Shown: positions 2,822-20,737 of the stretch, in pieces | How positions within the stretch are numbered: the first letter of the stretch is position 1 | How the letters are laid out: the number at the start of each line of letters is the position of its first letter | Source of the DNA: a virus | Taxonomy: Duplodnaviria; Caudoviricetes | Reading direction: 5' to 3' (one strand) | Virus record (IMG/VR): IMGVR_UViG_3300010397_000048 | Coordinates: 730-64,729 of that record | Length of the DNA stretch: 64,000 nucleotides | The notes under the pieces: generated by a model | Seen by the model: only the letters and a program-made list of their open reading frames with translations | Database searches by the model: none | Told to the model about the DNA's origin: nothing | Translations under genes and position numbers: made by a program

Positions 2822-2880
2822 GACTTGGAATAGGGAGAATACAGAACCGTAAATGAAAACGGGCACTCTCTATTCCTCTT

Positions 2881-3737: not shown

Positions 3738-3745
3738 GGGTTAAA

Positions 3746-4794: not shown

Positions 4795-4819
4795 TCCCGG
4801 GAAAGGGGAATTGTAACAA

Positions 4820-6352: not shown

Positions 6353-6420
6353 TATCCTTGGGTTGTGCTTAGGGTATCCCTGAGCATTTCCCTAGAGTAT
6401 TACTCTACAAAGGAGGCTAA

Positions 6421-6723: not shown

Positions 6724-6732
6724 GAATACCCC

Positions 6733-6972
6733 GTGGCAGTAGTAGTATTAGATGTTCCGAAAGCAGCCTGGAATAACGTAGTAATTCAATGCGTTGTATT
6801 AGGACTGGACTACACACCCGATGATCATAGAGAGAAAGGGAATACAGTAGTCGAAATTACGGGAACATGGGAAAAGTTAAATACAGTGGTCGCCCGAATC
6901 AAAAGAAGGGGACCAGAACTCCCAGAACTATTGGCTGTTATGGAAAGCAAACCATTAGACGTATTGGGGTGA
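6733..6972 (+). CDS. hypothetical protein
   Basis: 79 aa ORF in operon. Confidence 0.55.
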   Translation: MAVVVLDVPKAAWNNVVIQCVVLGLDYTPDDHREKGNTVVEITGTWEKLNTVVARIKRRGPELPELLAVMESKPLDVLG

Positions 6973-6975
6973 GAG

Positions 6976-7542
6976 ATGGGTAGTGGTTACAATGAATCTC
7001 TTGCTGCTAGTAGATCAGCGCGGGGAAAAGCGGATACTCGTACCCCCATTCATTTCTACTTAGCAGTGCCCTATTACGAATACGATTTGGGATGTGGCAA
7101 GAATGCCCATCTCCATACGTTTCAATCACGTACACCAATCGATGATGGTGATTGGGTGTGGTGTTCTGGGTGCCAAGAATTCAGGGAAGTAACTACCGAA
7201 CCTATGAATCGTCCGACTTCAACGGACGAAGTAGTAGCTTTTGAACAAGATAAAGGAATCCTGCGATATCGTATCGCTCTGCAATTACAGGATATGGGGT
7301 TCGTGGATAATGAAGCGGATGTCGCTGTTCTTGCAGTAGAGTTTGGTGTTCCTGTAGCAGAAATCAAAAGAATTAATGCAGGACTAAAGGCACCAGAAGG
7401 ACTTTCTGGATTACCAGAAATGTGCTCAAAAGGTTTGCACGAAATGACGGTGGACAATATCTCACTCAACGGTGCTGGTCGTCGAAATTGCAAAGCTTGT
7501 AAAACTGAAGCACAGCGAGCTAGACGTGCTGCTCGGAAGTGA
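6976..7542 (+). CDS. Zn-finger-containing protein
   Basis: CSGC and C-terminal CSKGLHEMT...RNCKAC motif seen on actinophage HNH/DNA-binding proteins. Confidence 0.65.
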   Translation: MGSGYNESLAASRSARGKADTRTPIHFYLAVPYYEYDLGCGKNAHLHTFQSRTPIDDGDWVWCSGCQEFREVTTEPMNRPTSTDEVVAFEQDKGILRYRIALQLQDMGFVDNEADVAVLAVEFGVPVAEIKRINAGLKAPEGLSGLPEMCSKGLHEMTVDNISLNGAGRRNCKACKTEAQRARRAARK

Positions 7543-7578
7543 AGCGCCGTTCCCCTGTCATAATTAGGAGGTAACCAG

Positions 7579-7836
7579 TTGGGGAGCAAGACTCAACACC
7601 CTGTCACTGGAAACGGTAATAGAACTAGAGAATTGCAGGTCAGTGAGGTTCTTACTCATCCGATGGCTGCCTCTGAAAAGGGACCATCTAGAAATAGATG
7701 GCGATACCGTTTCCTCAGAGTAACAAAATATCCTAGTCCTGATCGACCGGACAGTGGTCGATTGCTAGTGGAAAACATAGTCACAGGTAAACGTACCGAT
7801 CATTACGCAATTTTGTTTAATGTGAGGTTTCAGTGA
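7579..7836 (+). CDS. hypothetical protein
   Basis: AGGAGG RBS. Confidence 0.55.
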   Translation: MGSKTQHPVTGNGNRTRELQVSEVLTHPMAASEKGPSRNRWRYRFLRVTKYPSPDRPDSGRLLVENIVTGKRTDHYAILFNVRFQ

Positions 7837-8372
7837 TATTTGTTATGACTTTTCTAGTGTTTGCAGCGGTTTTATTTCTTATGGGTCTACCAACAATTCC
7901 AAAAAGATCTAAGAAAGTAAAGAGTAGTCGGGGTATTATTGAGCTAGCTCCTTTACCTAAAAACAAATTACCAGTCATTAACTCTTCCTATGAGGAGTTG
8001 GAGAGTTGGTATAATACTACTCAGACATTAGAGGCTGAAAATAAAAAACTCAGAGCTGAGATAGTATCTTACGAATCTAGATATTCACCTCATTTAGATT
8101 TCAAAAACACACTAGATGCTCAGAGATTAAGAAATGAAGTTTTTAAACTTAGAGATAGAGTCGCGGAGTTAGAAGAAAGTAATCGTAAAGATCTTTTAGC
8201 GCTCTTACCTAATGGTCCGGCTGAGTTGCCGGATAATCCCTGGGTGACAACTACTTTCCATTTCCGAGGCAGAGAACTAACGGAATGGGAGCAACACATG
8301 GAAAAAGAATCAAAAGTTCTTAAAAATGTGCCAGCTTATCACACGATTAATTCCATAGGACGGCAATCGTAG
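7833..8372 (+). CDS. membrane-anchored coiled-coil protein
   Basis: N-terminal hydrophobic helix followed by heptads. Confidence 0.6.
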   Translation: MIFVMTFLVFAAVLFLMGLPTIPKRSKKVKSSRGIIELAPLPKNKLPVINSSYEELESWYNTTQTLEAENKKLRAEIVSYESRYSPHLDFKNTLDAQRLRNEVFKLRDRVAELEESNRKDLLALLPNGPAELPDNPWVTTTFHFRGRELTEWEQHMEKESKVLKNVPAYHTINSIGRQS

Positions 8373-8770
8373 TGCTTTTACTAGCAGGATTAGCAGCATG
8401 GATTGCAACATCGACCATTGTGGAAGCTGAGATTTTCCGTGATGTTCGTGAAGGTTGCGATAAGGTACACGAGAAATATAATAATTGGTGGAGTTACAAG
8501 CTTAGATACCTAGTTCATTGTCATATGTGCACTGGTATTTGGGTGTCGGCAATTGTAGCTTTATTCATTCCAGCTTTTGTGTCTGGGGGCCTATTTGGCT
8601 GGGCACTTACTGCTTTGGCGATCAAAGGAATTGCTCATTCATTCCTGGTTCTTCAGAAGCTAGGTGAATCTGTCACCAATGCCCATCAGGCAAAGGCAGA
8701 CGCGCTTGAATGGGATTTGGTGGACCGTAAGGAATGGAAAGAAAGAGCACTTGCAAACGATGTGGACTGA
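8372..8770 (+). CDS. DUF1360-like membrane protein
   Basis: IF..VR...LVHCHMCTGIWVS motif flanked by TM helices. Confidence 0.65.
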   Translation: MLLLAGLAAWIATSTIVEAEIFRDVREGCDKVHEKYNNWWSYKLRYLVHCHMCTGIWVSAIVALFIPAFVSGGLFGWALTALAIKGIAHSFLVLQKLGESVTNAHQAKADALEWDLVDRKEWKERALANDVD

Positions 8771-8896
8771 CTGTTCGCCAATTCGTATTGGTGAGTGGTA
8801 GAGGTAAAAAGCGCACTGCGTGGTGTGCTTTAATCAAGGGTGTTTGGACAGAAGCATGTCCAGCAACCATTTTCCTAGATAGGGCTCATAAAGCAA

Positions 8897-9349
8897 ATGA
8901 GTAATCTCGCAGAAGATCTGAGAGAAAAAACCACTGCTGAGGTAGCGGTAGTGGCCGATGCAACAGAATGGCTAGATTCCGATGGTAATCAGCTAACGGT
9001 TGGTGCCCCGGTTTATGTAGCAGTTAATCTGCTTTCTGGTCAATGGGATTGGGTAAACGATCAAGATACGTGGGTTCCTAATCGAGTATTCGATACTGGT
9101 ACTGTAGAATCGTTGAATCCTGATGGAACTGTTTCTGTGAATTGGGATGCTGCTGGTTGCAGTTGTTTCGATGCGCGTGTTGAAAAGCCTTCAGATCTAA
9201 CCACTTCTGATCTGGAAAGCGTAATGGAATTGGCGGAAATTGTTGACGCTGTTCGTGAACAGGGTTATGAGACAGGGAAAAAGGCAGCTCAGAGAGAATT
9301 GCGAACTGTCTTAGGACTTCCGCATCCCTCAGACGAAAACAACAACTGA
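8897..9349 (+). CDS. hypothetical protein
   Basis: 150 aa acidic ORF. Confidence 0.65.
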   Translation: MSNLAEDLREKTTAEVAVVADATEWLDSDGNQLTVGAPVYVAVNLLSGQWDWVNDQDTWVPNRVFDTGTVESLNPDGTVSVNWDAAGCSCFDARVEKPSDLTTSDLESVMELAEIVDAVREQGYETGKKAAQRELRTVLGLPHPSDENNN

Positions 9350-9377
9350 AAAACAAAAGCCCAGAAATGGGCTCCAT

Positions 9378-9450
9378 GGTCTCATAGCTTAACGGTTAGA
9401 GCACCACCCTGTCACGGTGGGTTATGCGGGTTCGAATCCCGTTGAGATCG
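9378..9450 (+). tRNA. tRNA-Asp(GTC)
   Basis: CCACC-CTGTCAC-GGTGG. Confidence 0.93.
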
Positions 9451-9485
9451 CGCTTTTCCCTTTTACTAGTGAAAGGAATGGGAAA

Positions 9486-9920
9486 ATGTTCGGTAGCAAT
9501 AAGGTACGAGAAGTTCCTTATGACGGTAGAAGTTATGTATGGCCAGAACCAGCAAAATCCGTGTCTTTTGAAACGGAAAATTGGTCAGAAGCTAATCACT
9601 CGAAGGTAGCAACAAAGACTCCGGTTGAGGAACCAGTTTCCAAAGTCGTGAAAAGTCGTATTCGTGTACAGCTTTCGCGTCCATTGACGTGGGCTGAGAA
9701 AGAATGGTTGGAAACCGATAAGCTAGATCCTCATTCTCGTCGTATTGACGGAAGCGAAGGTCTTAAGGTTTGGGTTTCTCCGAACAAAGAACATGTTTGG
9801 GCAGAAGAGTTCCTCGGATCTCGCGTCCTGTTTGAATTGGTCGCAGCAGTTCTAGAAGAAGCTTTTGTAAACGTGTTCCCAAAGGCAGTTCGTACATTTC
9901 GCGAATACAACGGAGAGTAA
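9486..9920 (+). CDS. hypothetical protein
   Basis: Start moved downstream of the tRNA (MFGSNK...). Confidence 0.6.
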   Translation: MFGSNKVREVPYDGRSYVWPEPAKSVSFETENWSEANHSKVATKTPVEEPVSKVVKSRIRVQLSRPLTWAEKEWLETDKLDPHSRRIDGSEGLKVWVSPNKEHVWAEEFLGSRVLFELVAAVLEEAFVNVFPKAVRTFREYNGE

Positions 9921-10033
9921 TCCGTAAAGCAATAAATGCGAGAACATTCCTCGTGTATTAAAGGAAATAACTGCGCCGCGTTAAAAGGCAGTGGATGTGG
10001 GGAATCTCCGAGGAATTCCCGCGACATCTTTAA

Positions 10034-10105
10034 AGGCGTATAGCTCAGTGGGAGAGCAACTCGTTTACACCGAGAAGGTCGGGGGTTCAAATCCCTCTAT
10101 GCCTA
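10034..10105 (+). tRNA. tRNA-Val(TAC)
   Basis: CTCG-TTTACAC-CGAG; T-loop TTCAAAT. Confidence 0.9.
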
Positions 10106-10106
10106 C

Positions 10107-10376
10107 GTGACAGATGCAGCCGAAACCAGAGGACAATTAGACGTTTCCTTAGCTGATTTGAGTACTGCAATTGGAGTACTTGGTAGCTTAGAAGGAATTG
10201 TCGATAATCTGAAAACGAATATTACGGTCCTGGCTACTAATGTTGGTCCGGGCAGTCTGGATAGAGCACATATAATTGCACAAACTCTGTCCAGAACTCA
10301 AATGGAATTAGCGACGATTCGAACTCGATTTACTAGGTTGAGTGAAGGCATTCGTGAATGGCAACAGGTTCTATGA
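10107..10376 (+). CDS. small helical-hairpin family protein, copy 7
   Basis: MTDAAETRGQL...IREWQQVL. Confidence 0.7.
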   Translation: MTDAAETRGQLDVSLADLSTAIGVLGSLEGIVDNLKTNITVLATNVGPGSLDRAHIIAQTLSRTQMELATIRTRFTRLSEGIREWQQVL

Positions 10377-10633
10377 GTGACGCAGATAGCCTAAGAGCAC
10401 AAATCCAAAGTGCAATTCGAGCTACTGAGAATGTGCAGAAAATTGCACTTATGTATGAGCAAGCTATTCACGAACTTCAACAGCAGATTCTAATATTAGA
10501 TCTTGGTAGTGAGAATCCCTATATTCGAACCGCTGCACGAATAGCACCAGGTATTGGTGAGAATTTACCAGTAGATCATGAGGTAGTCGGACATGTTAAA
10601 GAAAGGTTACAGGATTGGTTACCTCATGTCTGA
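10373..10633 (+). CDS. small helical-hairpin family protein, copy 8
   Basis: MSDADSLRAQI...LQDWLPHV; ATGA overlap. Confidence 0.7.
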   Translation: MSDADSLRAQIQSAIRATENVQKIALMYEQAIHELQQQILILDLGSENPYIRTAARIAPGIGENLPVDHEVVGHVKERLQDWLPHV

Positions 10634-10886
10634 CGCTGCTTATATGCGTAATCGTTTCCAGAAATTGCTGGACGATAATGCCGTAGCCTTATTAAGTCTC
10701 CTTGAAGCAGATAGTAAATTCAAAGAGATGAAAGGCGAGTTATTAGAAATTGCAATTACGTCTGATGGCATAGAAATTGCTGACACTATTCGAGCATTAA
10801 CTGCATTGAATAATGACATTTTAAAAATGATGGCGAGTGTCGGTACCGTAACTAAGAATATGTCAGAATATCGGGATCATTTGTGA
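10626..10886 (+). CDS. small helical-hairpin family protein, copy 9
   Basis: MSDAAYMRNRF...MSEYRDHL. Confidence 0.7.
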   Translation: MSDAAYMRNRFQKLLDDNAVALLSLLEADSKFKEMKGELLEIAITSDGIEIADTIRALTALNNDILKMMASVGTVTKNMSEYRDHL

Positions 10887-10895
10887 TCCCTTCCT

Positions 10896-10976
10896 GGGAG
10901 CGTGGCGGAATGGCAGACGCGCTGGACTTAGAATCCAGTTCCGTAAGGAGTGAGAGTTCAAGTCTCTCCGTTCCTA
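10896..10976 (+). tRNA. tRNA-Leu(TAG)
   Basis: CTGGA-CTTAGAA-TCCAG; long variable arm. Confidence 0.93.
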
Positions 10977-11168
10977 CGAGAGTGGTTTTTAACTATGTTT
11001 TGGACTCTTTCCAAAAACTAAAATAACATAGTCATAGGTCGATCCAGCCTGGTAAATGGAAGGGAAATGGAAATGCTGTATTCAGTTCAGCAGTGAACGG
11101 TTGTCGTCGGGATGGCCTAGTAACTCTTGCCTTGTATACGGTAATAGTGCACACCATTTCCCGGCGCT

Positions 11169-11251
11169 GGAATCATGGCAGAGCGGTAATGCAGCGGTTT
11201 GCTAAACCGTAGAACCGAAAGGTTCCATAGGTTCGAATCCTATTGGTTCCG
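11169..11251 (+). tRNA. tRNA-Ser(GCT)
   Basis: GCGGT-TTGCTAA-ACCGT; long variable arm. Confidence 0.93.
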
Positions 11252-11287
11252 CACAATAAGAAGAAAGAAATCAATTAAGGGGACAAA

Positions 11288-11458
11288 ATGCCTAACCGTA
11301 AAGGCACTGGTAAAGCTGGTGGAGGATTGGTTGCCCGTATCAAGGTATGGGAATCAGAATCTCCGAACGGATATGTGAGAAACGGAAATGGCGTACCGAA
11401 TGTTCGGCACAACAAACCTGGATCTCAGAATTCGGCTAAAGGTGGTCCGGGGAAGTGA
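11288..11458 (+). CDS. small G/K-rich protein
   Basis: MPNRKGTGKAGGG...GGPGK, 56 aa, AAGGGG RBS, sits between tRNAs. Confidence 0.55.
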   Translation: MPNRKGTGKAGGGLVARIKVWESESPNGYVRNGNGVPNVRHNKPGSQNSAKGGPGK

Positions 11459-11467
11459 TTCCCCATT

Positions 11468-11550
11468 GCCCGGGTGGCGGAATGGCAGACGCGGGGGCCT
11501 TAAAAGCCCTTACCTGTTAAGGTGTGTGGGTTCGAGTCCCACGTCGGGTA
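11468..11550 (+). tRNA. tRNA-Leu(TAA)
   Basis: GGGGC-CTTAAAA-GCCCT; long variable arm. Confidence 0.92.
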
Positions 11551-11551
11551 C

Positions 11552-11833
11552 ATGTTTGTTATTGATCACGTAAAAGATGAAAGTGGCGAATGGGAAGCAA
11601 TCTTCCTAAATGATAATCTGAAATATGAGGGTCACGGTATTCCGACCTTTATTTGGCTACAGGTAATCGCAGAAAGCGCCGCCCATAACGAGATCCTAAC
11701 TCGTATTTGGGAAACGGATATGAGATCCTGTGGTGAAGATATTTACCCGGTTTCGATGACTGACCTTATGATTCGTAAAGATCGGTACCAGCTAGTAGGG
11801 ATCAACGGAGCGGATGCCTGTGTCCTTCATTGA
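11552..11833 (+). CDS. hypothetical protein
   Basis: MFVIDHV... starts right after the tRNA. Confidence 0.55.
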   Translation: MFVIDHVKDESGEWEAIFLNDNLKYEGHGIPTFIWLQVIAESAAHNEILTRIWETDMRSCGEDIYPVSMTDLMIRKDRYQLVGINGADACVLH

Positions 11834-12071
11834 TGCTGCGGAAATAAGAGAACGTTCACAAGCCATATATTTCAAAGCTAATGAGTTTCATACCAAGGCT
11901 CTGGAGTTGTTAGACATGGCTGATCAAATTAAAGACATTGTCAATAGCCTAGGAACTGGTGCACCGCCTGTTAGTACCCTTGTTACTCTAGCTATTGATA
12001 ATCTTGGTACTGCTAATCATCAAATTGGTCAAGTATCCGATTTAATTGAAGATTGGGCTAAAAAGCTTTAG
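11814..12071 (+). CDS. small helical-hairpin family protein, copy 10
   Basis: ..FIDAAEIRERS...IEDWAKKL. Confidence 0.7.
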   Translation: MPVSFIDAAEIRERSQAIYFKANEFHTKALELLDMADQIKDIVNSLGTGAPPVSTLVTLAIDNLGTANHQIGQVSDLIEDWAKKL

Positions 12072-12078
12072 CCCGTAT

Positions 12079-12165
12079 GCCCGGGTGGCGGAACTAGGCA
12101 GACGCGGCAGATTCAAAATCTGTTATCCTGAAAGGGATGTGAGGGTTCGATTCCCTCGTCGGGTA
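12079..12165 (+). tRNA. tRNA-Leu(CAA)
   Basis: GCAGA-TTCAAAA-TCTGT; long variable arm. Confidence 0.93.
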
Positions 12166-12232
12166 CTCGGTAAAGGTAGGGACCGTTAGACATCTAAAAA
12201 GCCCGCCTGACTGTTAGGAAAGACTAACTCAC

Positions 12233-12305
12233 TGGGATATAGCCAAGTGGTTAAGGCGCGAGTCCGATAAACTCGTATGCGGGGGTTCAATTCCCTCTAT
12301 CCCTA
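12233..12305 (+). tRNA. tRNA-Ile(GAT), atypical C33
   Basis: CGAGT-CCGATAA-ACTCG; T1:T72 mismatch. Confidence 0.8.
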
Positions 12306-12311
12306 CTTCGT

Positions 12312-12384
12312 GTCCACATAGCTCAATGGTTAGAGCAGCACTCTTATCAAGTGTTGGTTCAGGGTTCAAATCCTTGTGTGGATA
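12312..12384 (+). tRNA. tRNA-Ile(TAT)
   Basis: GCACT-CTTATCA-AGTGT; C37. Confidence 0.82.
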
Positions 12385-12533
12385 CATAAAGGTGAAAAAC
12401 GGCCGAGACTCTGTCGGTATTTCCAGAGGAAAAGGTATTCTAGAGGACCGTTCTTTCGCAATAGGAAATAAAATAGAGGAGAGAATAACAGATATCAATA
12501 GTCTGATCCACTATGAACTGTTATTCTCGTCAA

Positions 12534-12605
12534 GCGCTCTTAGCTCAGCGGTAGAGCAGGACACTCTTAATGTTCGGGTCGTGGGTTCAAATCCCTCAGG
12601 GCGTA
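12534..12605 (+). tRNA. tRNA-Lys(CTT)
   Basis: GGACA-CTCTTAA-TGTTC. Confidence 0.92.
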
Positions 12606-12643
12606 CGCAATTAGAAACTAGTTTCCTTTATTAAGGAGAAGAA

Positions 12644-12886
12644 ATGGCACTGCCAGAGGCAGTTAACACAGTAATAGAACCAACTGACGTAGATCGTAGC
12701 AAGGACACTATTCTCAATCTACTTGCTGAAGGTGCTTTTTACGTTTTTGTCACTCTCAAAAAAGAAGATACAGAAGACGGGGAAGCGATTGTGATTGGAC
12801 TTCAAACCGATATCGATGATCCCGAAGTCCTTAAAATTGTGCTAGAGAGTGCACAAGAGCAGGCGAATCTGTTTTCAGGACAGTGA
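12644..12886 (+). CDS. acidic hypothetical protein
   Basis: TAAGGAG RBS; followed by a CCCCCTGCT...AGCAGGGGG hairpin. Confidence 0.7.
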   Translation: MALPEAVNTVIEPTDVDRSKDTILNLLAEGAFYVFVTLKKEDTEDGEAIVIGLQTDIDDPEVLKIVLESAQEQANLFSGQ

Positions 12887-12932
12887 AGCGCCTACCCCCT
12901 GCTAATCTTAATTATGTGAAGCAGGGGGACAC

Positions 12933-13004
12933 GCGCCATTAGCTCAGAGGCAGAGCAGGGGACTTTTAATCCTCGGGTCCGGATTTCGAAATTCCGATGG
13001 CGTA
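12933..13004 (+). tRNA. tRNA-Lys(TTT)
   Basis: GGGGA-CTTTTAA-TCCTC; atypical T arm. Confidence 0.85.
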
Positions 13005-13255
13005 CAAGGTTGTCAGTAACCCTAATGTAGCTAGGTCTTTTGGGAAATAGGCACTAGTAAAACTGACTTTCCGGCAGAGAATAAATTCCCCTCGTGGCTG
13101 GAACTGGTGAAAGCCTATAGGAAAATAGGAGTTTCTATCTAGACCTGAGAAATTGGTGGTCGTGGATAGCCTATTGGAATATGGGAATGAGCCTTTTAGG
13201 GAATCGGGCGTCATTCTAGATATGAGGGTAATGTACCGAGTCCGATTCCCACAAT

Positions 13256-13326
13256 GCGGGTGTGGTGTAGAGGTAACATAAGTGTCTTCCAAACATTTGT
13301 CCAGGGTTCGATTCCCTGTATCCGCT
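13256..13326 (+). tRNA. tRNA-Gly(TCC)
   Basis: AGTGT-CTTCCAA-ACATT; U73. Confidence 0.92.
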
Positions 13327-13381
13327 CTTTGTAACAATGCTTTTTAATCGTACTGCTTATAGAAAGCTGGCGAATAATTGA

Positions 13382-13573
13382 ATGGAAACCTGGGAACAAT
13401 TTAGAGTAGTGATTGGTAATTGGGCTAAATTACGAATTACTGACGATGAATTCTATTGCTACTTAATAACTTCTGATTTTGCTAATCCAGCAGATCGCCG
13501 AGTAGCTGATATTTTTATTACGCAACATGATCACGGGGAATGGTCCCATGCCATCTATCATCGAATGTATTGA
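13382..13573 (+). CDS. hypothetical protein
   Basis: 63 aa ORF between tRNAs. Confidence 0.45.
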   Translation: METWEQFRVVIGNWAKLRITDDEFYCYLITSDFANPADRRVADIFITQHDHGEWSHAIYHRMY

Positions 13574-13751
13574 ATGTGGATATAGTCGATCTTCTGACCA
13601 AGATGGTCGCAGCTTCACTGAAGTTTGTTCAATTTGTTACCTTGAAGATTGTTCGACAATGATCTCTCCTTTAGCACTTATTTGTGACGAGTGCAGAGAA
13701 GAATTAGAACCAGAAAGACTTATCGATCCCGGTGAATCTTTGTTAATGTAG
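13548..13751 (+). CDS. Cys-rich (Zn-binding) small protein
   Basis: CIEC, CSIC and CDEC pairs. Confidence 0.5.
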   Translation: MPSIIECIECGYSRSSDQDGRSFTEVCSICYLEDCSTMISPLALICDECREELEPERLIDPGESLLM

Positions 13752-13877
13752 TCTAGATAGCTGCGCAATTGTTTGTTTGCTGGTTTCTTTGTTCCTTGCG
13801 CGTAACTGATAGGTTGAGTGATCCCGGGAATTGTTCCTCCCATCAGCCACAAATCAAAACTAAAGGAAACCAGTCTT

Positions 13878-13948
13878 TCTCTCATAGCATAAGGGTAGTG
13901 CGCGCGACTGTTAATCGCTGGATCTAGGTTCGAATCCTGGTGAGAGAG
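13878..13948 (+). tRNA. tRNA-Asn(GTT)
   Basis: GCGA-CTGTTAA-TCGC; acceptor TCTCTCA/TGAGAGA. Confidence 0.9.
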
Positions 13949-13949
13949 C

Positions 13950-14135
13950 ATGAGAACTAGACAATGTGAATTAGGCATTACGTATGAAGAAATCGAACAT
14001 GCCTTAAAAGATCGTACACAGGAGTTTTACAATTGGATGGATGGACAAACAATGGCGCTTTGCCCAGAGCATGGCGGCGTGGTTTATCCATGGGACTTAC
14101 AAAGATTTATTTCTGGTTTACCAGTAATTGATTAA
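13950..14135 (+). CDS. hypothetical protein
   Basis: FYNWMDGQT...VYPWDLQRF small-phage-protein-like motif. Confidence 0.6.
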   Translation: MRTRQCELGITYEEIEHALKDRTQEFYNWMDGQTMALCPEHGGVVYPWDLQRFISGLPVID

Positions 14136-14136
14136 T

Positions 14137-14208
14137 GCCTCCATAGCTCAGCGGCAGAGCAGCTCACTAGTAATGAGCAGGTCGTGGGTTCAATTCCTAC
14201 TGGTGGCT
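14137..14208 (+). tRNA. tRNA-Thr(AGT)
   Basis: GCTCA-CTAGTAA-TGAGC; body nearly identical to Thr(TGT) at 15045. Confidence 0.9.
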
Positions 14209-14212
14209 CTTT

Positions 14213-14266
14213 TTAGACACACACAGCAATTCAAATCCATTCCAAGGGTGAATATATTGTGTCTAG
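14213..14266 (+). ncRNA. ACAGCAA-stem ncRNA (Y-RNA-like), copy 1
   Basis: TTAGACAC-AC-ACAGCAAT...GTGTCTAG. Confidence 0.7.
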
Positions 14267-14273
14267 GTAAAAT

Positions 14274-14355
14274 GGAAGCTTCAGCATTGGCAAGCGAAAC
14301 TGTCTTGAAAACAGCAGAGGTAACACTCTTGGGGGTTCGACTCCCTCAGCTTCCG
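14274..14355 (+). tRNA. tRNA-Ser(TGA)
   Basis: CTGT-CTTGAAA-ACAG; long variable arm. Confidence 0.88.
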
Positions 14356-14687
14356 CAATGGGAAACACGTTCCGAGTGCACTTTACAAGATGTTGGAATA
14401 ATCTCAGAGAGAATAGAAAAATTGCGAAAAGTTACTCAGGCACCCAATGGTTAGGTTTGTAGCGTGTCGATACCCAGTAACAATGGCAGTTTAATACGGA
14501 AACCTAGCCCCATTACCTTGCTGCTTCTATTCTCGAATACTTCAGATGTTCTCATGCTCAATTCCAGCTCTTAGATATAATCTGGTAATAGTGGTCGCCT
14601 AGCCGTTGCCCTGTTCGGCGAAGCAACCCTAAGTTGGGAATAGACCCTGCCAGGATCAGGGAATCTACTACTGGTAGTTCTGATTAA

Positions 14688-14758
14688 TGCCCATTGGTGT
14701 AACGGCAACACTAAGGATTCTGAATCCTTCATTCTTAGTTCGAATCTAGGATGGGCAG
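14688..14758 (+). tRNA. tRNA-Gln(CTG)
   Basis: AAGGA-TTCTGAA-TCCTT. Confidence 0.92.
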
Positions 14759-14886
14759 CTTTGGTGACAGTTACCGATATAAGTTAGCTACTTTATCATA
14801 GGAACTGTTCGGATAAGAATGAGGTCGCGATATACGTCTTATCCGCCTGTCTGGTATGTGCAGGCTAGCCAATTACATACCGACTT

Positions 14887-14962
14887 GGAGCAGTATACAA
14901 ATTGGAATAAGTGGCCAGACTTTCAATCTGGTATTGTGCGGGTTCGAGTCCCGTCTGCTCTA
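14887..14962 (+). tRNA. tRNA-Glu(TTC)
   Basis: CCAGA-CTTTCAA-TCTGG. Confidence 0.9.
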
Positions 14963-14969
14963 CGATATA

Positions 14970-15039
14970 TTAGACACTTACAGCAATACTTTATTCTTAA
15001 CCCTAATATTCTGGAAATAAGAAGCCAAAATGTGTCTAG
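14970..15039 (+). ncRNA. ACAGCAA-stem ncRNA, copy 2
   Basis: TTAGACAC-TT-ACAGCAAT...GTGTCTAG. Confidence 0.7.
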
Positions 15040-15044
15040 GAAAT

Positions 15045-15118
15045 GCCTCTATAGCTCAGTTGGTCAGAGCAATCGCCTTGTAAGCGATAGGTCGTGGGTT
15101 CGAATCCTACTAGTGGCT
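15045..15118 (+). tRNA. tRNA-Thr(TGT)
   Basis: ATCGC-CTTGTAA-GCGAT. Confidence 0.93.
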
Positions 15119-15212
15119 CAAGTGAGTAGTTGTGGGTAACGTGACGCTATGTCGGTCCTCTTTGAAATAGAAGAGACATCAAATCCGGCTACAGAATTGG
15201 AACCCTCATTAA

Positions 15213-15283
15213 TGGCTCATCGTCTAACGGCAGGACAGAAGACTTTGAATCTTAGAATCGTGGTTCGAATCCATGTGAGCCAG
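15213..15283 (+). tRNA. tRNA-Gln(TTG)
   Basis: AAGA-CTTTGAA-TCTT. Confidence 0.9.
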
Positions 15284-15363
15284 CGAGAGTTAAATGGTGA
15301 CTGAATTAGCTACTCAGGTAAACATTGACCGGGCATAGACGGTTCTCAACCTATGCACTTTTT

Positions 15364-15438
15364 ATCACAGTAGCTTAATTGGGAAAGCTCCGGTCTCCAA
15401 AACCGATGTAGATTAAGGTTCGAGTCCTTACTGTGGTG
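15364..15438 (+). tRNA. tRNA-Trp(CCA)
   Basis: CGGT-CTCCAAA-ACCG. Confidence 0.88.
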
Positions 15439-15439
15439 C

Positions 15440-15502
15440 TTAGACAGCAACAGCAATCACTTATCAAACAATATATTGCATTGTAAAAGATAAGCTGTCT
15501 AG
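15440..15502 (+). ncRNA. ACAGCAA-stem ncRNA, copy 3
   Basis: TTAGACAG-CA-ACAGCAAT...CTGTCTAG (compensatory change). Confidence 0.7.
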
Positions 15503-15507
15503 TTTAA

Positions 15508-15580
15508 CGGGTATTAGATCATGGGGTAGATAGCGCGATTTGGGATCGTGAGGCGGAAGGTTCGAGTCCTTCATACCCGA
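15508..15580 (+). tRNA. tRNA-Pro(TGG)
   Basis: CGCGA-TTTGGGA-TCGTG; C1-G72. Confidence 0.9.
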
Positions 15581-15712
15581 CGTGAAACAACATGAAGTTG
15601 GAATGGTTTGGGACCATGTCCTTTGGTATTGGGAAAAATTTACTCAGTGCTATTTAAAAGGTAACCATTTAGAGAAAATGGATTCGCATGGCAAATGCTA
15701 TAGGTGTGGGAA

Positions 15713-15877
15713 ATGCTTAGCGAAGAAATGTTACTAGAGATTCGTGAACGATACACACATTATGGTGAAACTGAAAAGCTCAATAAGAGAACAGCAGTTC
15801 ACGACATTAGACTTCTTTTAGAAGAAATCGATAGACAAGAATCAGTTATAAATAGATTGGTGCTTAATCTTGTCTAA
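15713..15877 (+). CDS. hypothetical protein
   Basis: MLSEEMLLEIRERY...DIRLLLEEIDR, 54 aa, below the track cutoff. Confidence 0.5.
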   Translation: MLSEEMLLEIRERYTHYGETEKLNKRTAVHDIRLLLEEIDRQESVINRLVLNLV

Positions 15878-16037
15878 GGTAGCCTTAGATGCTGAAATAG
15901 CTAGTAGCATCTTAAAGGGATTGACCGCTTTAGATAAGGCTCTAAACAACATCGGAAAGACTCCTGAGCAGCGTGCACTTCTTAAGCGAGATATTACAGA
16001 ATTAAAGACAGCAATAAAAGTATCCCAATCATCTTGA
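15870..16037 (+). CDS. hypothetical protein
   Basis: MSKVALDAEIASSILKGL..., 55 aa, overlaps the previous ORF. Confidence 0.45.
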   Translation: MSKVALDAEIASSILKGLTALDKALNNIGKTPEQRALLKRDITELKTAIKVSQSS

Positions 16038-16059
16038 CAAAGATAAGGAAGGTAGCGAA

Positions 16060-17523
16060 ATGGGATCATTTCTAGCCGAGTTGCAGTCACAAGGAACTAA
16101 GACTGCACGCACCGAAAACGGTGCTGTAACTCATTCAACAACTACAAATGCAGTGCTGGATTTCTTTGCTCTTGCGGGAGCGAAGCGTAACGATATCGCT
16201 GGTGCAAAGACCTTGTTCCGTAAGGCTTTCCAGGAAGATCGTCAGCTAGCAATTCGTGCGCTATTCTATTTGCGTGACATTCGCGGCGGACAAGGAGAAC
16301 GTACCTTGTTCCGTGAGCTATTTAAGGAATTAACTAGATTGGATCTCGGCGCTGCTGAGAAGGTGATCGGGTTTGTTCCTGAGTACGGTCGCTGGGACGA
16401 TGTTATTTCTCTTTATGGATTTGGTGGCCTGAATAAGACTGCCTTAAAGATGATCCGTAACCAGTTGGAATTGGACGCATTGGATCGTGCAGCAGGAAAG
16501 TCAATCTCGCTAATGGCGAAGTGGCTTCCTTCGGAGAATGCTTCGAGCGCGAATTCTCGTGTGATGGCGCGACAGATTGCAACAGACTTGGGCATTTCTA
16601 ACAAGAAGTACCGTCAGACTGTTGTTGCATTGCGTAAGCACATTGGTTTACTGGAACAGCAAATGAGTACCAATTCTTGGGACTCTGTTGATTACGGTAA
16701 GCTTCCTTCTCAGGCATCACGTAAGCACACAAAGGCATTCAAGCGTCATGACGAAACTCGCTATGAGGAATTCCTCGGAGCAGTTATCAAGGGTGATGCA
16801 AAGATGAATGCTGGAACTGTTGCGACTTACGAAGTTTTGGATGTCGTACGAAAGGGAAACGACAATGCGGCCAATGCAATCTGGAAATCTCTTCCTGATT
16901 ACACAAATGGTGGAAATGCAATTGTTGTTGCCGATACTTCGGGCTCAATGACAGCGATCATTTCGGGGAGTACCAGAGCAATGGATGTTTCGACCTCTCT
17001 TGCCTTGTACTTTGCGGAACACAATGAGGGTGCATTCAAAAATTACTTCATCTCTTTCTCAGAGAGTCCAGAATTGGTAGCAGTTCGTGGGAATACTCTG
17101 ATGGAAAAGTTGCGCAACATTAGCACTACTAATTGGGGATTCAATACCAATATCGAAAAGGTATTTGATTTGATTCTCGATGCTGCAAAGCGTGCTGGTG
17201 CTGATGCTGAAGACGTCCCTAAGGTTATCTATATCATTTCAGACATGGAATTTGATTCCGTAAGAGGTGGAAGAAATGAAACCAATTACGAAGCGGCAAA
17301 GAGAAAGTTCGATGCTGCTGGGTTCCAGCTACCTCACGTAGTGTTCTGGAATGTGGCATCGAGAAACAGTAATGTTCCAACTTCTGCGGCACAAACCAAT
17401 GTGACCTTGGTTTCTGGTTTGTCACAGAGCACTTTTCGTTATGTTCTAGAAGGAAAGACTCCGGTCCAGTCCATGCTAGACATTCTTAACGGTGAGCGCT
17501 ACTCGCAGATTGTCCTTAGCTAA
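16060..17523 (+). CDS. TROVE/Ro60-like protein with C-terminal vWA domain (DUF2828 family)
   Basis: RTENGA..LDFF, YLRDIRGGQGER, EYGRWDD, AKWLPSE; vWA MIDAS DTSGSM, ISDMEFD, VFWNV. Confidence 0.85.
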   Translation: MGSFLAELQSQGTKTARTENGAVTHSTTTNAVLDFFALAGAKRNDIAGAKTLFRKAFQEDRQLAIRALFYLRDIRGGQGERTLFRELFKELTRLDLGAAEKVIGFVPEYGRWDDVISLYGFGGLNKTALKMIRNQLELDALDRAAGKSISLMAKWLPSENASSANSRVMARQIATDLGISNKKYRQTVVALRKHIGLLEQQMSTNSWDSVDYGKLPSQASRKHTKAFKRHDETRYEEFLGAVIKGDAKMNAGTVATYEVLDVVRKGNDNAANAIWKSLPDYTNGGNAIVVADTSGSMTAIISGSTRAMDVSTSLALYFAEHNEGAFKNYFISFSESPELVAVRGNTLMEKLRNISTTNWGFNTNIEKVFDLILDAAKRAGADAEDVPKVIYIISDMEFDSVRGGRNETNYEAAKRKFDAAGFQLPHVVFWNVASRNSNVPTSAAQTNVTLVSGLSQSTFRYVLEGKTPVQSMLDILNGERYSQIVLS

Positions 17524-17620
17524 GGAGTAAAGAATGGGGCCGACAAACCGGTAAAGGCTAGCAAGTTAAGGGTTGTATCTACTAGCTGCCCCATTCCCTT
17601 ATAAGAAAGGTAACCATTCC

Positions 17621-18853
17621 TTGATTAAAAAGATCGGACTACTATTAGGCTCTCTAGTTGCAGTAGTACTGTTAGCGTTTAATGGAATTGGAGTAGCAAG
17701 TGCAACTCCTATTGCTACTAGTGTTGCTGGAACAGCAACCTGTACTACTAATTCAACTGGATACTGTACGGTCAATCATGACTTAGGAACTACTCCTAAT
17801 TCAGTAGTAGTAACCATTCAAGCTGGCGGCGGATTCGCTAATGCTTATGCGTTTACTGCAACTACCTTTAAGGTTCACGCATACACTGCTGGCGGAGGAA
17901 ATGTAGTTTCTAAGCCTGTTACATTCTCATGGGTTGCTTTTGCTGGTGCAAATTCAACAACTCCACCAACTACTCTTCCGACCACAGTTCCAACAACTCA
18001 GCCAACTACTACGCCACCAACAACAGAACCAACTACTTCACCACCAACTTCAAATCCCCCGGCCGATTGGCCTAGTGCGGATAATACTGGTCCGGTAACT
18101 GGTACTGTGTTGACTGATTACACAGGATCTCTTTCGATTACTGCTCCGAATACAGTGATTGATTCTAAGACTGTGAATGGTGATCTCGATATTCGTACAA
18201 CTGGGGTCGTGATCAAGAATTCAGTTATCAATGGCGAGGTAAGCAATTATGATAACGGAGTGACTAGTTCGTTTACTATTCAGGACTCAATCGTAAAGAA
18301 TGGAAAGCGTGATGCGTGTATGTGCGTCGGCTCTCATGATTTTACTGCCCTGAGACTTGAAGTAATTGGTGGTAACCGTGGAATGTATTGTGAAAAGAAT
18401 TGTACGATTCACGATACTTATGTGCATGGCACTGATCTAAAAGCCGCACAACACGCGTCGGCCATTCGTGTAGAGCAGAATGCAACACTTGTTCATAACA
18501 AACTTCAATGTGACTGGACTGATCTTACCGATAGTGAGATTGGATGTTCGGCAGACATGACTGGTTATCCAGACTTTGCACCGATTAAGAATAACACTAT
18601 CGATAACAATTACTTTGTTGCAAATCCTGCTGGACTTGGATTCTGTGCTTACGGTGGAGACACGCAAGGTAAGCCATTTTCAAGTGATCCAAGCAATGCA
18701 ACTAACATCGTGTTCAAGAACAACGTATTCGAGCGTGGATCCAATAACAAGTGTGGAACTTGGGGTGCAATTACTGACTTCAATCCATCACGCGCCGGAA
18801 ACGTATGGACAAATAACAAATGGGATGACGGTAGTACAGTTAACCCGGAATAA
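17621..18853 (+). CDS. secreted protein with Thr/Pro linker and right-handed beta-helix (pectin-lyase-like) domain
   Basis: Signal peptide MIKKIGLLL...ASA, TTPPTT linker, WPSADNTG motif, N/D-rich beta-helix repeats. Confidence 0.75.
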   Translation: MIKKIGLLLGSLVAVVLLAFNGIGVASATPIATSVAGTATCTTNSTGYCTVNHDLGTTPNSVVVTIQAGGGFANAYAFTATTFKVHAYTAGGGNVVSKPVTFSWVAFAGANSTTPPTTLPTTVPTTQPTTTPPTTEPTTSPPTSNPPADWPSADNTGPVTGTVLTDYTGSLSITAPNTVIDSKTVNGDLDIRTTGVVIKNSVINGEVSNYDNGVTSSFTIQDSIVKNGKRDACMCVGSHDFTALRLEVIGGNRGMYCEKNCTIHDTYVHGTDLKAAQHASAIRVEQNATLVHNKLQCDWTDLTDSEIGCSADMTGYPDFAPIKNNTIDNNYFVANPAGLGFCAYGGDTQGKPFSSDPSNATNIVFKNNVFERGSNNKCGTWGAITDFNPSRAGNVWTNNKWDDGSTVNPE

Positions 18854-18862
18854 GTAATCTTA

Positions 18863-18982
18863 TTAGGCACTCACAGCAACTTTTCTTTATGAAAATTAGC
18901 TCACTTGGTAGAGCAATTGTTTATGGTACAATAGGTAACTGGTTCAACTCCAGTATTTTCAAACACAAAGTAATGTGCCTAG
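18863..18982 (+). ncRNA. ACAGCAA-stem ncRNA, copy 4, enclosing an intact tRNA-like cloverleaf (18890-18962, anticodon ATG)
   Basis: TTAGGCAC-TC-ACAGCAAC...GTGCCTAG; inner TGAAAAT/ATTTTCA acceptor plus D, anticodon and T arms. Confidence 0.78.
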
Positions 18983-19039
18983 TTAAAAGCCACCCCGGTC
19001 CCGAGGGTAAACGTAGTGGATTAAATATATCGGGCACAT

Positions 19040-19114
19040 ACGGCTATAGCTCAGTCTGGACAGAGCACTTGGCTACGAACCAAGGTGTCGGGGGTTCAAA
19101 TCCCTCTAGTCGTA
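19040..19114 (+). tRNA. tRNA-Arg(ACG)
   Basis: CTTGG-CTACGAA-CCAAG. Confidence 0.93.
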
Positions 19115-19137
19115 CTGGGAATTACATAATTCCTCAT

Positions 19138-19210
19138 GGTGGATGAAGCGGCGGCATTAGCAATTAGATTGTGGCTCTAATTCTCGCGGGTTCGAATCCC
19201 GTCTTCCACC
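19138..19210 (+). tRNA. tRNA-His(GTG)
   Basis: TTAGA-TTGTGGC-TCTAA; G-1/C73. Confidence 0.88.
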
Positions 19211-19211
19211 C

Positions 19212-19290
19212 TTAGACCCTAACAGCAATCTTAATTACAGAAAACAGAGCAGCACTGCTGACAGTTTAACAGTTAATTAATCGGGTCTAG
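19212..19290 (+). ncRNA. ACAGCAA-stem ncRNA, copy 5
   Basis: TTAGACCC-TA-ACAGCAAT...GGGTCTAG (compensatory change). Confidence 0.7.
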
Positions 19291-19299
19291 ATAAAACAA

Positions 19300-19376
19300 G
19301 GCATGGCTGCTGGGACAGAGACGGGACTGTAAATCCTGTGCGGCACGCTACCAAGGTTCGATTCCTTGACATGCCA
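19300..19376 (+). tRNA. tRNA-Tyr(GTA)
   Basis: CGGGA-CTGTAAA-TCCTG; short atypical D arm. Confidence 0.85.
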
Positions 19377-19377
19377 C

Positions 19378-19501
19378 TTAGACACGAACAGCAATTTATA
19401 ACAATTCTCATGATAAGAGAGAGGTAGTGGGTTCGATTCCCACATCCCCCATTTCTTGGGGGGTTAGCTCAATGGTAGAGCGCTAAAAGTTATGTGTCTA
19501 G
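19378..19501 (+). ncRNA. ACAGCAA-stem ncRNA, copy 6, enclosing a circularly permuted tRNA module (YrlA-like)
   Basis: TTAGACAC-GA-ACAGCAAT...GTGTCTAG; inner order anticodon arm, T arm, loop-closed acceptor, D arm. Confidence 0.82.
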
Positions 19502-19592
19502 TTTTAATAGAAGTAGTGCTCCGGAGTATTAGAATTGTAACCTGTCTCCGATTTACGAATACGGCACAGGAGCAATAATCACTACTTCTCAT

Positions 19593-19666
<74 letters not shown>

Positions 19667-19703
19667 CTGGTGACTTATCTTGTAAGATAACGACACCTTT
19701 AAT

Positions 19704-19807
19704 AGAGACGCTTACAGCAATGCCTTAGGCAGATATTTGTTCTCAGAAAACAAATTGATTTGGTTCGATTCCAAACATGGTAAACACCATGAAACTAATG
19801 CGTCTCG
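19704..19807 (+). ncRNA. ACAGCAA-stem ncRNA, copy 7, enclosing anticodon-like and T-arm hairpins
   Basis: AGAGACGC-TT-ACAGCAAT...GCGTCTCG; ATTTGTT-CTCAGAA-AACAAAT; TTTGG-TTCGATT-CCAAA. Confidence 0.75.
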
Positions 19808-19811
19808 TCAA

Positions 19812-19884
19812 CGGCAGATAGCTCAGACGGTAGAGCACTGGATTGAAGCTCCGGGTGTCACAGGTTCGATTCCTGTTCTGTCGA
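19812..19884 (+). tRNA. tRNA-Phe(GAA)
   Basis: CTGGA-TTGAAGC-TCCGG. Confidence 0.92.
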
Positions 19885-19906
19885 CTCATTAAAGAAAGGA
19901 GTACAT

Positions 19907-20737
19907 TTGCCTTTAATTGGAAACGTCTATAAAGGAACTGGTAAAGACCAGCAGCGATGGTATAGAAATAACAATACTAAGACTGAAGTTCCAGGCGTAT
20001 CAGCAATAGTCGACATGATGCCCAAGGGTGCCTTAACTCCTTGGGCCGCAAGACTTGCAGCAGAATGGGCAGTAGATAATATCAATGAGGTTCAAGAGTT
20101 ACTGTCCGAAAAGGATGGTCGTTTTCGAGCCATTGATAAGATTAAGAATGCCAGTTCTCGCTATGCAGATAAAGCAGCTAAAGAAGGAACCAGTGTTCAT
20201 CATTATGCAGAAACAGTTGCTAGAGCAGTACAAGCAAACACAAAACCTAAGGCTGACGATATGCCTCAAGGGACGATGCCTTATCTGAGGAACTACGTAC
20301 GGTTTCTAAAAGAATTCGACGTAGAACCAGTAATGCTCGAAACTGTGGTGTGGAATGAGGAAGTTGGATACGCTGGTCGAATTGATATGGCCGCTATTCT
20401 TCATAAGATTAGTGAAGATCTCGTAATCGTAGATACTAAGTCCGGTGCTTCTGGAGTTTGGGAATCTGTTTCATTGCAACAGACTGCTTATGTAAAAGCA
20501 GAATCATGGTGGGATGAAGAGGAAGATATCCTAAAACCAATGCCAGAAATCCTTGGTGCGTATGCTTTGTGGCTACGCCCAGAAGGATTCGCATTGATTC
20601 CAGTTGATACAACAGACATGGAGTATGAACAACTCAAGAGACTTCGGGGATCACTTGAGTGGAAACGAACTAGAGCAAAGAAAGTAGTTCGTCCAGCTAT
20701 TAATCAGTATCCAATTAAGAGGCAGAGGAGATGGTAG
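19907..20737 (+). CDS. PD-(D/E)XK (Cas4/RecB-like) exonuclease
   Basis: GTSVH, YAGRID, IVDTKSG, LQQTAY. Confidence 0.85.
   Translation: MPLIGNVYKGTGKDQQRWYRNNNTKTEVPGVSAIVDMMPKGALTPWAARLAAEWAVDNINEVQELLSEKDGRFRAIDKIKNASSRYADKAAKEGTSVHHYAETVARAVQANTKPKADDMPQGTMPYLRNYVRFLKEFDVEPVMLETVVWNEEVGYAGRIDMAAILHKISEDLVIVDTKSGASGVWESVSLQQTAYVKAESWWDEEEDILKPMPEILGAYALWLRPEGFALIPVDTTDMEYEQLKRLRGSLEWKRTRAKKVVRPAINQYPIKRQRRW

Follow-up and report, generated by a model that had tools for sequence, protein, structure and literature searches.

The subject of this analysis is a small element at positions 18864-18981 of a 64,000-nucleotide (nt) stretch of viral DNA (Duplodnaviria; Caudoviricetes; IMG/VR record IMGVR_UViG_3300010397_000048, positions 730 to 64,729), called here the window and numbered from its own first base. 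In this element a complete tRNA in normal order is enclosed by a stem that carries the motif ACAGCAA, downstream of a gene for a Ro60-like protein. The element is real and under selection, and gene finders mis-call it as tRNA-His. By analogy with Ro60 and its Y RNAs, it is probably a Y-RNA-like mimic of a tRNA that docks on the Ro-like protein of the phage, and no working tRNA. The parts of the module and the gene of the presumed partner are as follows.

18864..18981, + strand: whole module, with basal stem, ACAGCAA, short middle helix and normal-order cloverleaf (script detection, minimum free energy fold)
18864..18870, + strand: 5' arm of the basal stem, TAGGCAC, pairing with 18975-18981
18873..18879, + strand: ACAGCAA motif, single-stranded, in the 5' strand of the internal loop, where the Ro-like protein is presumed to dock
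18890..18962, + strand: tRNA-like domain in normal order, loop TTATGGT (anticodon ATG), discriminator A followed by ACA (ARAGORN, Rfam)
18975..18981, + strand: 3' arm of the basal stem, GTGCCTA, pairing with the 5' arm
16060..17523, + strand: Ro60-like protein gene, 487 amino acids (aa), presumed partner (Pfam, PHROG, fold)

Structure and conservation of the nested tRNA

The first-pass annotation of the DNA had described a normal-order cloverleaf with an almost all-AU acceptor, nested in an ACAGCAA stem, and the description proved exact in every arm. ARAGORN calls a tRNA-His(atg) at 18890-18962, and the Rfam tRNA model (RF00005) aligns over its full length with 60.6 bits against a gathering threshold of 29 and without any non-canonical pair. 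The structural features of RF00005 are all present, that is, an acceptor of 7 base pairs (bp), D and T arms, and an anticodon arm of 5 bp with a 7-nt loop, U33 and a purine at 37 (R37). All seven pairs of the acceptor (TGAAAAT/ATTTTCA) are formed, one of them being G:C, while the D stem reads GCTC/GAGC, the anticodon arm ATTGT-TTATGGT-ACAAT and the T arm ACTGG-TTCAACT-CCAGT. The stem that closes the module has 7 bp, with ACAGCAA starting two bases past its 5' arm, and the minimum free energy structure from RNAfold consists of this basal stem, a 5-bp middle helix and the cloverleaf. A distant-mode blastn search with the module found 19 records, each covering 46-47% of the query (the tRNA core), and none of them extends to the basal stem or to ACAGCAA. 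Contigs of two other sequencing runs span the whole tRNA without a difference, the contig of a third run covers it to 18946 (the first 57 nt, through the anticodon loop), likewise without a difference, and L196, a slightly diverged metagenome relative, also has ATG. Because these three runs and L196 agree, the odd ATG anticodon is real and not an assembly slip.

Orthologues were found in metagenome contigs with a 24-base probe. At 94, 83 and 73% identity of the Ro-like protein the nested anticodon is ATG, TTG and TTC, giving ATG (window), ATG (L196), TTG (L002) and TTC (L200) in the four orthologues, and the anticodon conservation expected of a functional tRNA is not found. Loop columns are variable in 4 of 7 cases versus 7 of 66 elsewhere in the tRNA (Fisher p 0.008). 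The discriminator, the D arm, the anticodon stem and six of the seven acceptor pairs are unchanged, and the only alteration of acceptor pair 7:66 is a compensatory swap in L002. When the 28 helix pairs are followed through the four orthologues, 112 of 112 cells are paired (0 of 500 shuffles are as good). Four pairs have changed on both sides in a compensatory way (two of the basal stem and one each of the acceptor and the T stem), and no change is one-sided. The basal stem of L200, TAGACGC/GCGTCTA, has two double changes compared to the window. This orthologue with the TTC loop (L200:489-606, minus strand) has CCAGCAA instead of ACAGCAA, so that some variation is allowed at the first base of the motif. 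Since all 28 pairs are kept, four of them by compensatory change, the nested tRNA is not decaying, and the comparison of orthologues indicates that it is held by purifying selection as a structure.

It is extremely unlikely that the element is a decaying tRNA pseudogene, formerly Gln(TTG), drifting neutrally in an old module. L002 and L200 have T at position 34, which is probably the ancestral state, against A in the window and L196; in addition, a His-type anticodon with A34 is normally not used by bacteria, and both points would agree with such a history. Neutral drift, however, is at odds with the intact pairing and the purely compensatory changes in the four orthologues, with the identical sequence in the contigs of the three other runs where covered, and with the wide recurrence of the class described below.

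The Ro60-like gene and the module family

The nested module lies 1,340 nt downstream of the gene at 16060-17523, on the same strand. The product of this gene matches Pfam DUF7788 (5e-47), DUF2828 (5e-31) and VWA_2 (2.5e-6) as well as phrog_850, 'RNA-binding protein' (2e-148). Its homologues in mycobacteriophages (46% identical) already bear the annotation 'Ro-like RNA binding protein', and 364 viral contigs and 710 cultured phage records encode homologues. A protein sequence search against the PDB gave nothing relevant, and for this reason a fold search was needed. An AlphaFold2 model built from 31 homologues (the alignment leaving out L041, which has a stop codon) reached a pLDDT of 89.5, and the PDB fold search with it returned 13 matches with E <= 0.001, all of them Ro60/TROVE over the full length with TM 0.35-0.58, the Ro60 of a Thermus phage among them. 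Judged by the modelled fold, the product is Ro60-like.

Modules of the same build accompany this gene across phages. With a strict detector, which asks for exact ACAGCAA, a stem of 7 pairs with no fewer than 6 Watson-Crick ones and a span of 30-230 nt, 208 modules were found near the Ro-like gene on its strand, in 76 of 84 sources. In the window ACAGCAA occurs 20 times against 9.8 +/- 3.4 expected, and 0 of 100 shuffles reach 20. In a control that is independent of the stem, covering 80 loci and 972 kb, ACAGCAA was counted 357 times on the gene strand versus 38 times on the other, and a closing 7-bp stem accompanies 193 of these 357 versus 5 of the 38. Eleven control words of the same composition (overlapping AACAGCA left out) gave 56-150 hits per strand, with stems in 11-30%. 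As 161 distinct modules (median length 63 nt) use 97 different 5' arms, the stem covaries; their 5'-side consensus is A-G-R-C-N-C-N(0-3)-ACAGCAA. The module at 18864-18981 belongs to this family by its 7-bp stem, its 5' motif and the phrog_850 Ro-like gene nearby on the same strand.

Seven modules are found in the tRNA cluster of the window, around the Ro-like gene. The six sisters of the nested module are closed by a stem of 7-8 bp, with ACAGCAA shortly after its 5' arm. They are mostly wedged between tRNA genes and fold with the stem closed, ACAGCAA unpaired and apical hairpins.

14214..14265, + strand: short sister module with an apical hairpin of 7-nt loop, in the gap between tRNA-Thr(agt) and tRNA-Ser (z -2.15)
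14971..15038, + strand: short sister module between tRNA-Glu and tRNA-Thr
15441..15501, + strand: short sister module between tRNA-Trp and tRNA-Pro (z -2.65)
19213..19289, + strand: sister module between tRNA-His(gtg) and tRNA-Tyr
19379..19500, + strand: sister module of YrlA type, with T arm, closed acceptor hairpin and D arm (permuted; z -5.0)
19705..19806, + strand: sister module with D-like hairpin, anticodon-like arm (7-nt loop), T arm and closed hairpin (z -3.8)

The payload at 19705-19806 is a second kind of permutation, unlike that at 19379-19500, and the only match to the YrlA model in the region is at 19395-19511, with 37.7 bits, below the gathering threshold of 69 (E 2e-5 to 2e-6). 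The tRNA-like body is joined to the ACAGCAA stem at no fewer than four places in the family. The earlier proposal that the tRNA stands inside a Y-RNA-like module is supported by the Ro60-like gene 1.3 kb upstream, by the way in which the module accompanies this gene family, and by the sub-threshold YrlA match of its neighbour. In several of the permuted payloads an aminoacylatable end is impossible and the canonical 7-nt loop is nonetheless kept. At least four permutations can be told apart by their point of attachment, namely the anticodon stem, the 7/8 junction, the 65/66 junction and the normal ends (window, L088, L089, L109, L141 and others). As a side observation, the contig of one run has T>C at both 19452 and 19457, its sole differences in 1,051 bases, and both positions fall in the loop that caps the closed acceptor hairpin in the YrlA-type module.

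In cultured phages the modules are found beside the gene in several hosts. Mycobacterium phage Crossroads has three of them directly 3' of the Ro-like gene in an unannotated gap, and ARAGORN finds no tRNA in this 6.4-kb locus. Escherichia phage GEP101 (Felixounavirus, L083) has four between annotated tRNAs, none of which nests a tRNA. Three further modules stand beside the gene in a Listeria phage, one in Enterococcus, two in Campylobacter, five in Bacillus and one in Ralstonia phages. The strict detector gave no module in the KVP40 and Staphylococcus phage loci, which may be a limit of the detector, and Rfam at E <= 0.01 had no match among the modules of the four cultured-phage loci scanned.

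A different function of the modules would be that of punctuation in the tRNA transcript, as RNase III/E sites or spacers with no Ro partner, one of which happens to flank a tRNA. The modules of the window do abut tRNAs with spacers of 1-8 nt, and the Ro-like gene itself stands inside tRNA clusters in six of six cultured phages, so that the co-occurrence with the gene could be indirect. We consider this very unlikely, however. The three modules of Crossroads stand in a locus where no tRNA is found, and L004-L007, L012 and L013 also have modules adjoining the gene and no tRNA. In addition, the single-stranded heptamer is invariant across phages of Actinobacteria, Firmicutes, Proteobacteria and Campylobacter, which fits one protein reader better than host-specific RNases.

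Whole tRNAs are rare among the modules near the gene, an ARAGORN tRNA being held by only two of the 208, the one in the window and its orthologue in the closest relative, L002. All viral contigs were scanned for ACAGCAA with one common D-arm sequence 8-30 nt further on. This gave 110 stretches, and 35 distinct sequences (window and L002 included) were left when a closing stem was required 80-150 nt away. An ARAGORN tRNA is contained in 21 of the 35, with calls of Asn-gtt, Thr-tgt, Gln-ttg, His-atg, Arg-gcg, Asp-gtc, Leu-tag, Gly-tcc and Lys-ttt and some irregular loops; in the other 14 a hairpin replaces the 5' strand of the acceptor and is followed by D, anticodon-like and T arms. The acceptor helices of the class are A/U-rich, with 0-3 G:C pairs. 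Eleven of the 33 new contig pieces contain the Ro-like gene, always on the same strand and 23-1822 nt away; out of five whole records searched three have it, and the two without it are 66% and 24% complete. Because the scan pattern fixes the D arm, the true recurrence is at least as high as counted, and the sample leans to one tRNA type. The first-pass annotation had seen a captured tRNA and perhaps an evolutionary intermediate. A one-off event of this kind is not supported, as such modules recur in many unrelated viral contigs, the pairing is complete in all 112 cells, and the best match among the 28 other tRNAs of the window is 50 of 73 positions, on which ground a recent duplication of a window tRNA was also rejected. 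The normal-order tRNA modules look like a stable class and not like a transition.

Decoding tRNA, decoy or mimic

The main alternative is a genuine tRNA gene, which would be excised by RNase P and 3' trimming, receive its CCA, be charged and read CAU (CAA and GAA in the relatives), the flanking stem and ACAGCAA governing only processing or stability. We regard this as somewhat unlikely, even though much of the structure speaks for it. The cloverleaf is fully canonical at 60.6 bits, and selection maintains its fold (112 of 112 cells). No orthologue has lost T33 or R37, the GTT lineage conserves its loop, and the other A34 tRNA of the phage, Thr(agt), looks normal. The acceptor is also a perfect 7-bp helix, the determinant that makes the YrlA of M. 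smegmatis an RNase P substrate according to PMC4201824.

Several properties of the nested tRNA are nevertheless difficult to reconcile with decoding. The identity of a tRNA-His for the bacterial histidyl-tRNA synthetase (HisRS) lies in a G at -1 paired with C73. In the nested tRNA both base -1 (18889) and the discriminator (18962) are A, as the first-pass annotation had claimed in denying it a His identity element, and the regular tRNA-His(gtg) that it had reported downstream, at 19139-19211 and 157 nt past the end of the stretch first annotated, has G at -1 and C at 73. For GlnRS and GluRS the anticodon is a main identity element. Here it changes class three times (His-, Gln- and Glu-type), yet the discriminator stays the same and so do six of the seven acceptor pairs, the seventh being swapped compensatorily. 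The base after the discriminator is A (18963), whereas it is C in 28 of 28 other tRNAs of the window; likewise in L002 the nested tRNA has A and 13 of 13 others have C. The nested tRNA thus lacks the position-74 C that the free tRNAs of the phage share. With one G:C pair in the acceptor versus 2-5 in the other window tRNAs, and a G+C content of 0.34 versus 0.44-0.66, it also stands apart in composition. Furthermore, a free tRNA of normal G+C content and the same anticodon stands beside the nested one in three of three relatives with listable tRNAs (the L002 locus, about 10.6 kb of a 54.9-kb contig, and records G001 and G004), and the sister payloads are permuted and by their structure have no chargeable end. 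The doubt already expressed about an ordinary decoding tRNA-His is therefore supported indirectly, by the lack of His identity, the lack of the post-discriminator C and the ATG/TTG/TTC anticodons of the orthologues. In all free tRNAs of the window and L002 counted here, exactly one C is encoded, after which the sequences diverge, and the full CCA is not encoded; this single C may be a processing signature of the phage group.

The loops of the nested tRNAs resemble those of their free counterparts closely. Nested and free loops are identical at 7 of 7 positions for Gln-ttg in L002 and for Asn-gtt in G001, and at 6 of 7 for Thr-tgt in G004, which also has a nested Leu-taa with two free copies. 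Loop copying together with loop turnover on a frozen body suggests a bait for a factor that reads the loop. We hold it to be unlikely, and offer it as a tentative idea, that the nested tRNA is an anticodon-arm decoy or sensor displayed by the Ro-like particle, where the displayed loop copy would trap, titrate or report a host factor, for example an anti-phage anticodon nuclease. If so, the ATG/TTG/TTC turnover would be the trace of an arms race, and the circular permutations would be different mountings of the same bait on the same protein. Pairing of the anticodon with that of tRNA-Met was also considered as a specific signal and was rejected, as any complementary pair of loops shows the same.

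Instead, we favour the reading of the module as a Y-RNA-like tRNA mimic. Host tRNA-processing enzymes would cut the transcript of the tRNA cluster at the neighbouring tRNAs and in this way free stem-closed RNAs of about 50-125 nt. The 7-bp basal stem and the unpaired AGRCNC-N(0-3)-ACAGCAA would then dock on the Ro60-like ring protein, as Y RNAs do on Ro60. The distal payload, a complete L-shaped tRNA in normal order, would serve as the mimic, showing its elbow, acceptor-like helix and anticodon stem-loop to a tRNA-recognising factor while anchored to the Ro-like protein. The nested tRNA would stand outside the decoding set of the phage and would probably not be aminoacylated. What was observed is the fold and how it is conserved, the family of modules, the Ro60-like fold modelled for the neighbour's product, and the co-occurrence of modules and gene; we infer the transcription of the module, its binding by the protein and the partner factor.

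There are several points that weigh against the mimic. The contact between protein and RNA is proposed by analogy; the phage record has no match to Pfam TROVE at E <= 1, and the Rsr motif described with experimental support for YrlA is GNCGAAN0-1G, where the module has ACAGCAA. No RNA run is listed among those that match the nested-tRNA stretch. The folding energy of the module is not unusual (RNAfold z -1.6, not significant; 13 of 200 shuffles fold equally well), and covariation was used as structural evidence in its place. The module is the most tRNA-like of its class, with its perfect 7-bp acceptor and all conserved tRNA positions, and the T33 and the purine at 37 are kept in all three orthologous loops. 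In another lineage, that of GTT, the loop CTGTTAA is invariant over three different anticodon stems, and it is thus read by something, decoding being one candidate. Finally, the presumed role of the C after the discriminator in processing is derived from the observed regularity.

Known Y RNAs and the phage context

Bacterial Y RNAs carry tRNA-like domains, their genes share the strand of Ro60 at a distance of no more than 4 kb, and Ro60 recognises the 5' strand of the Y RNA stem (PMC4201824). The YrlA of M. smegmatis, with a 7-bp acceptor, is a substrate of RNase P and the CCA enzyme in vivo, both halves staying on Rsr (PMC4201824). The module at 18864-18981 resembles the YrlA family (RF02553; Salmonella, M. 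smegmatis; PMC4201824, 10.1101/312249) in being a small RNA near a Ro60-type gene on the same strand, with a terminal stem that has a conserved 5'-side motif, and with a tRNA-like domain of canonical D and T arms; it shares the 7-bp acceptor with the M. smegmatis form. The distance of less than 4 kb to a Ro60 orthologue on the same strand also applies, the partner here being Ro60-like by its predicted fold. However, YrlA is permuted (T arm, closed acceptor, D arm) and has no anticodon loop, whereas the module has normal order and a 7-nt anticodon loop. The partner of YrlA is of the Pfam TROVE type, in contrast to the DUF2828/DUF7788 type of the phage protein. The Rfam YrlA model, with its threshold of 69 bits, has no match on 18864-18981 at E <= 10. 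The module therefore departs from YrlA in three defining features, the motif, the permuted order and the model score.

Other systems are similar in part. Yrn1 of Deinococcus radiodurans (PMC4201824) is shown with the parts of its tRNA-like domain in normal order and a stem-loop at the position of the anticodon arm. As described there, however, it lacks a clear D arm as well as a variable arm, and its 'anticodon loop' has 6 nt, whereas 18864-18981 is a complete cloverleaf that scores as a tRNA. The Thermus phage phiLo has a Ro60 homologue with adjacent Y-like RNAs, Yrl1 and Yrl2 (stem, bulge, stem), and its Ro60 and Yrl1/Yrl2 have been shown to bind each other and the host PNPase (PMC12135203). 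Unlike the ACAGCAA modules, the phiLo Yrl RNAs have a CGAA motif and a TROVE-type Ro60, and the accessible text of that work mentions no tRNA-like domain in them. In the Felixounavirus Bas63, the Ro60-like gp130 counters the Ppl defence, and its authors guessed, without RNA analysis, that some of the neighbouring 'tRNAs' are Y RNAs (10.1101/2024.10.10.617714). The Felixounavirus homologues are 35% identical to the protein of the window and are encoded upstream of a tRNA cluster. The tmRNA and viral tRNA-like structures (10.1101/312249) are likewise cases of tRNA mimicry outside ordinary decoding; they are described as having a free CCA end and being charged, whereas charging of the nested tRNA is doubtful and it is tied to a Ro-like protein module. 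The Ppl and PNPase results make a role in defence or RNA turnover plausible by analogy, although they are not evidence for 18864-18981 itself.

What is new here is that the module, which accompanies a Ro60-like gene, carries an entire tRNA complete with a real anticodon loop. To our knowledge, the Y RNAs so far known to mimic tRNA do so in a permuted or partial form, and no partner is known for the tRNA part. In the literature we found no complete normal-order tRNA in a Y-like RNA, nor the ACAGCAA motif, although the supplement of Chen et al. 2014 (22 phage YrlAs) may list some of the modules. The changing loop provides a handle on the purpose of the tRNA part. The reach is wide, as the Ro-like gene is present in the 710 cultured phage records mentioned above, Felixounavirus among them. 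Because tRNA finders call such modules odd tRNAs (His-ATG here), phage tRNA inventories and arguments from codon usage are distorted by them.

The window is nearly all of a 64.7-kb viral contig with a CheckV completeness of 84%, and its proteins include DNA polymerase A, a primase-helicase, a ribonucleotide reductase and the major head protein. ARAGORN finds 29 tRNA genes, all on the + strand and spanning 183-19885. A megablast search of 18000-20500 against cultured phages gave no match, and a search of sequencing runs found the same DNA in soil and rhizosphere metagenomes. Predicted promoters in 15500-20000 do not rise above shuffles (6 vs 8.6), and the terminator scan of the same region gave none on the + strand close to the nested-tRNA module. 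A 426-aa open reading frame (17573-18853) stands between the Ro-like gene and the nested tRNA; it has no Pfam or PHROG match, and its sole and weak lead is a right-handed beta-helix (atlas score 0.85). Since in L196 and L200 the Ro-like gene and the nested tRNA are likewise about 1.4 kb apart, this reading frame may also exist there. In L002 the nested module is directly 3' of the Ro-like gene.

A second flank motif, TTACTTCG, placed after a short stem, surrounds tRNA bodies that are homologous to the nested one of the window, with the same D arm and anticodon stem. Its sites are at 1459 and 1659 of L197, at 2657 and 4731 of L198, and at 595, 2642 and 3446 of L199 (minus strand). The motif also flanks small T-arm RNAs between tRNAs and is often followed by TTTTCTC. 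It may mark a sister family of modules whose protein partner is a different one; the contig pieces with this motif (L197, L198, L199) contain no Ro-like gene.

Some further observations concern the tRNA clusters. In the tRNA-Thr(agt) with A34 at 14137-14209 of the window the acceptor is normal and GC-rich and the discriminator is followed by C; this tRNA is conserved in three related phages (window, L002:318-392 and L196:249-321); tRNAs with A34 other than Arg(ACG) are unusual in bacterial systems. In the large phage records with the Ro-like system, ARAGORN reports the anticodons tca ('SeC') and cta ('Pyl') at 14931-15010 and 16283-16372 of G001 (the record of L111) and at L063:5177-5254, and these tRNAs may be of suppressor type. 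In the Listeria phage vB_Lino_VEfB7 (L201), positions 2463-3014 have a sub-threshold match to ROOL (87.4 bits vs a gathering threshold of 99.1, E 2e-16), which shares the tRNA cluster with three ACAGCAA modules and the Ro-like gene about 650 nt further downstream, and a 'putative tRNA ligase' gene is located 1.3 kb downstream of the match.

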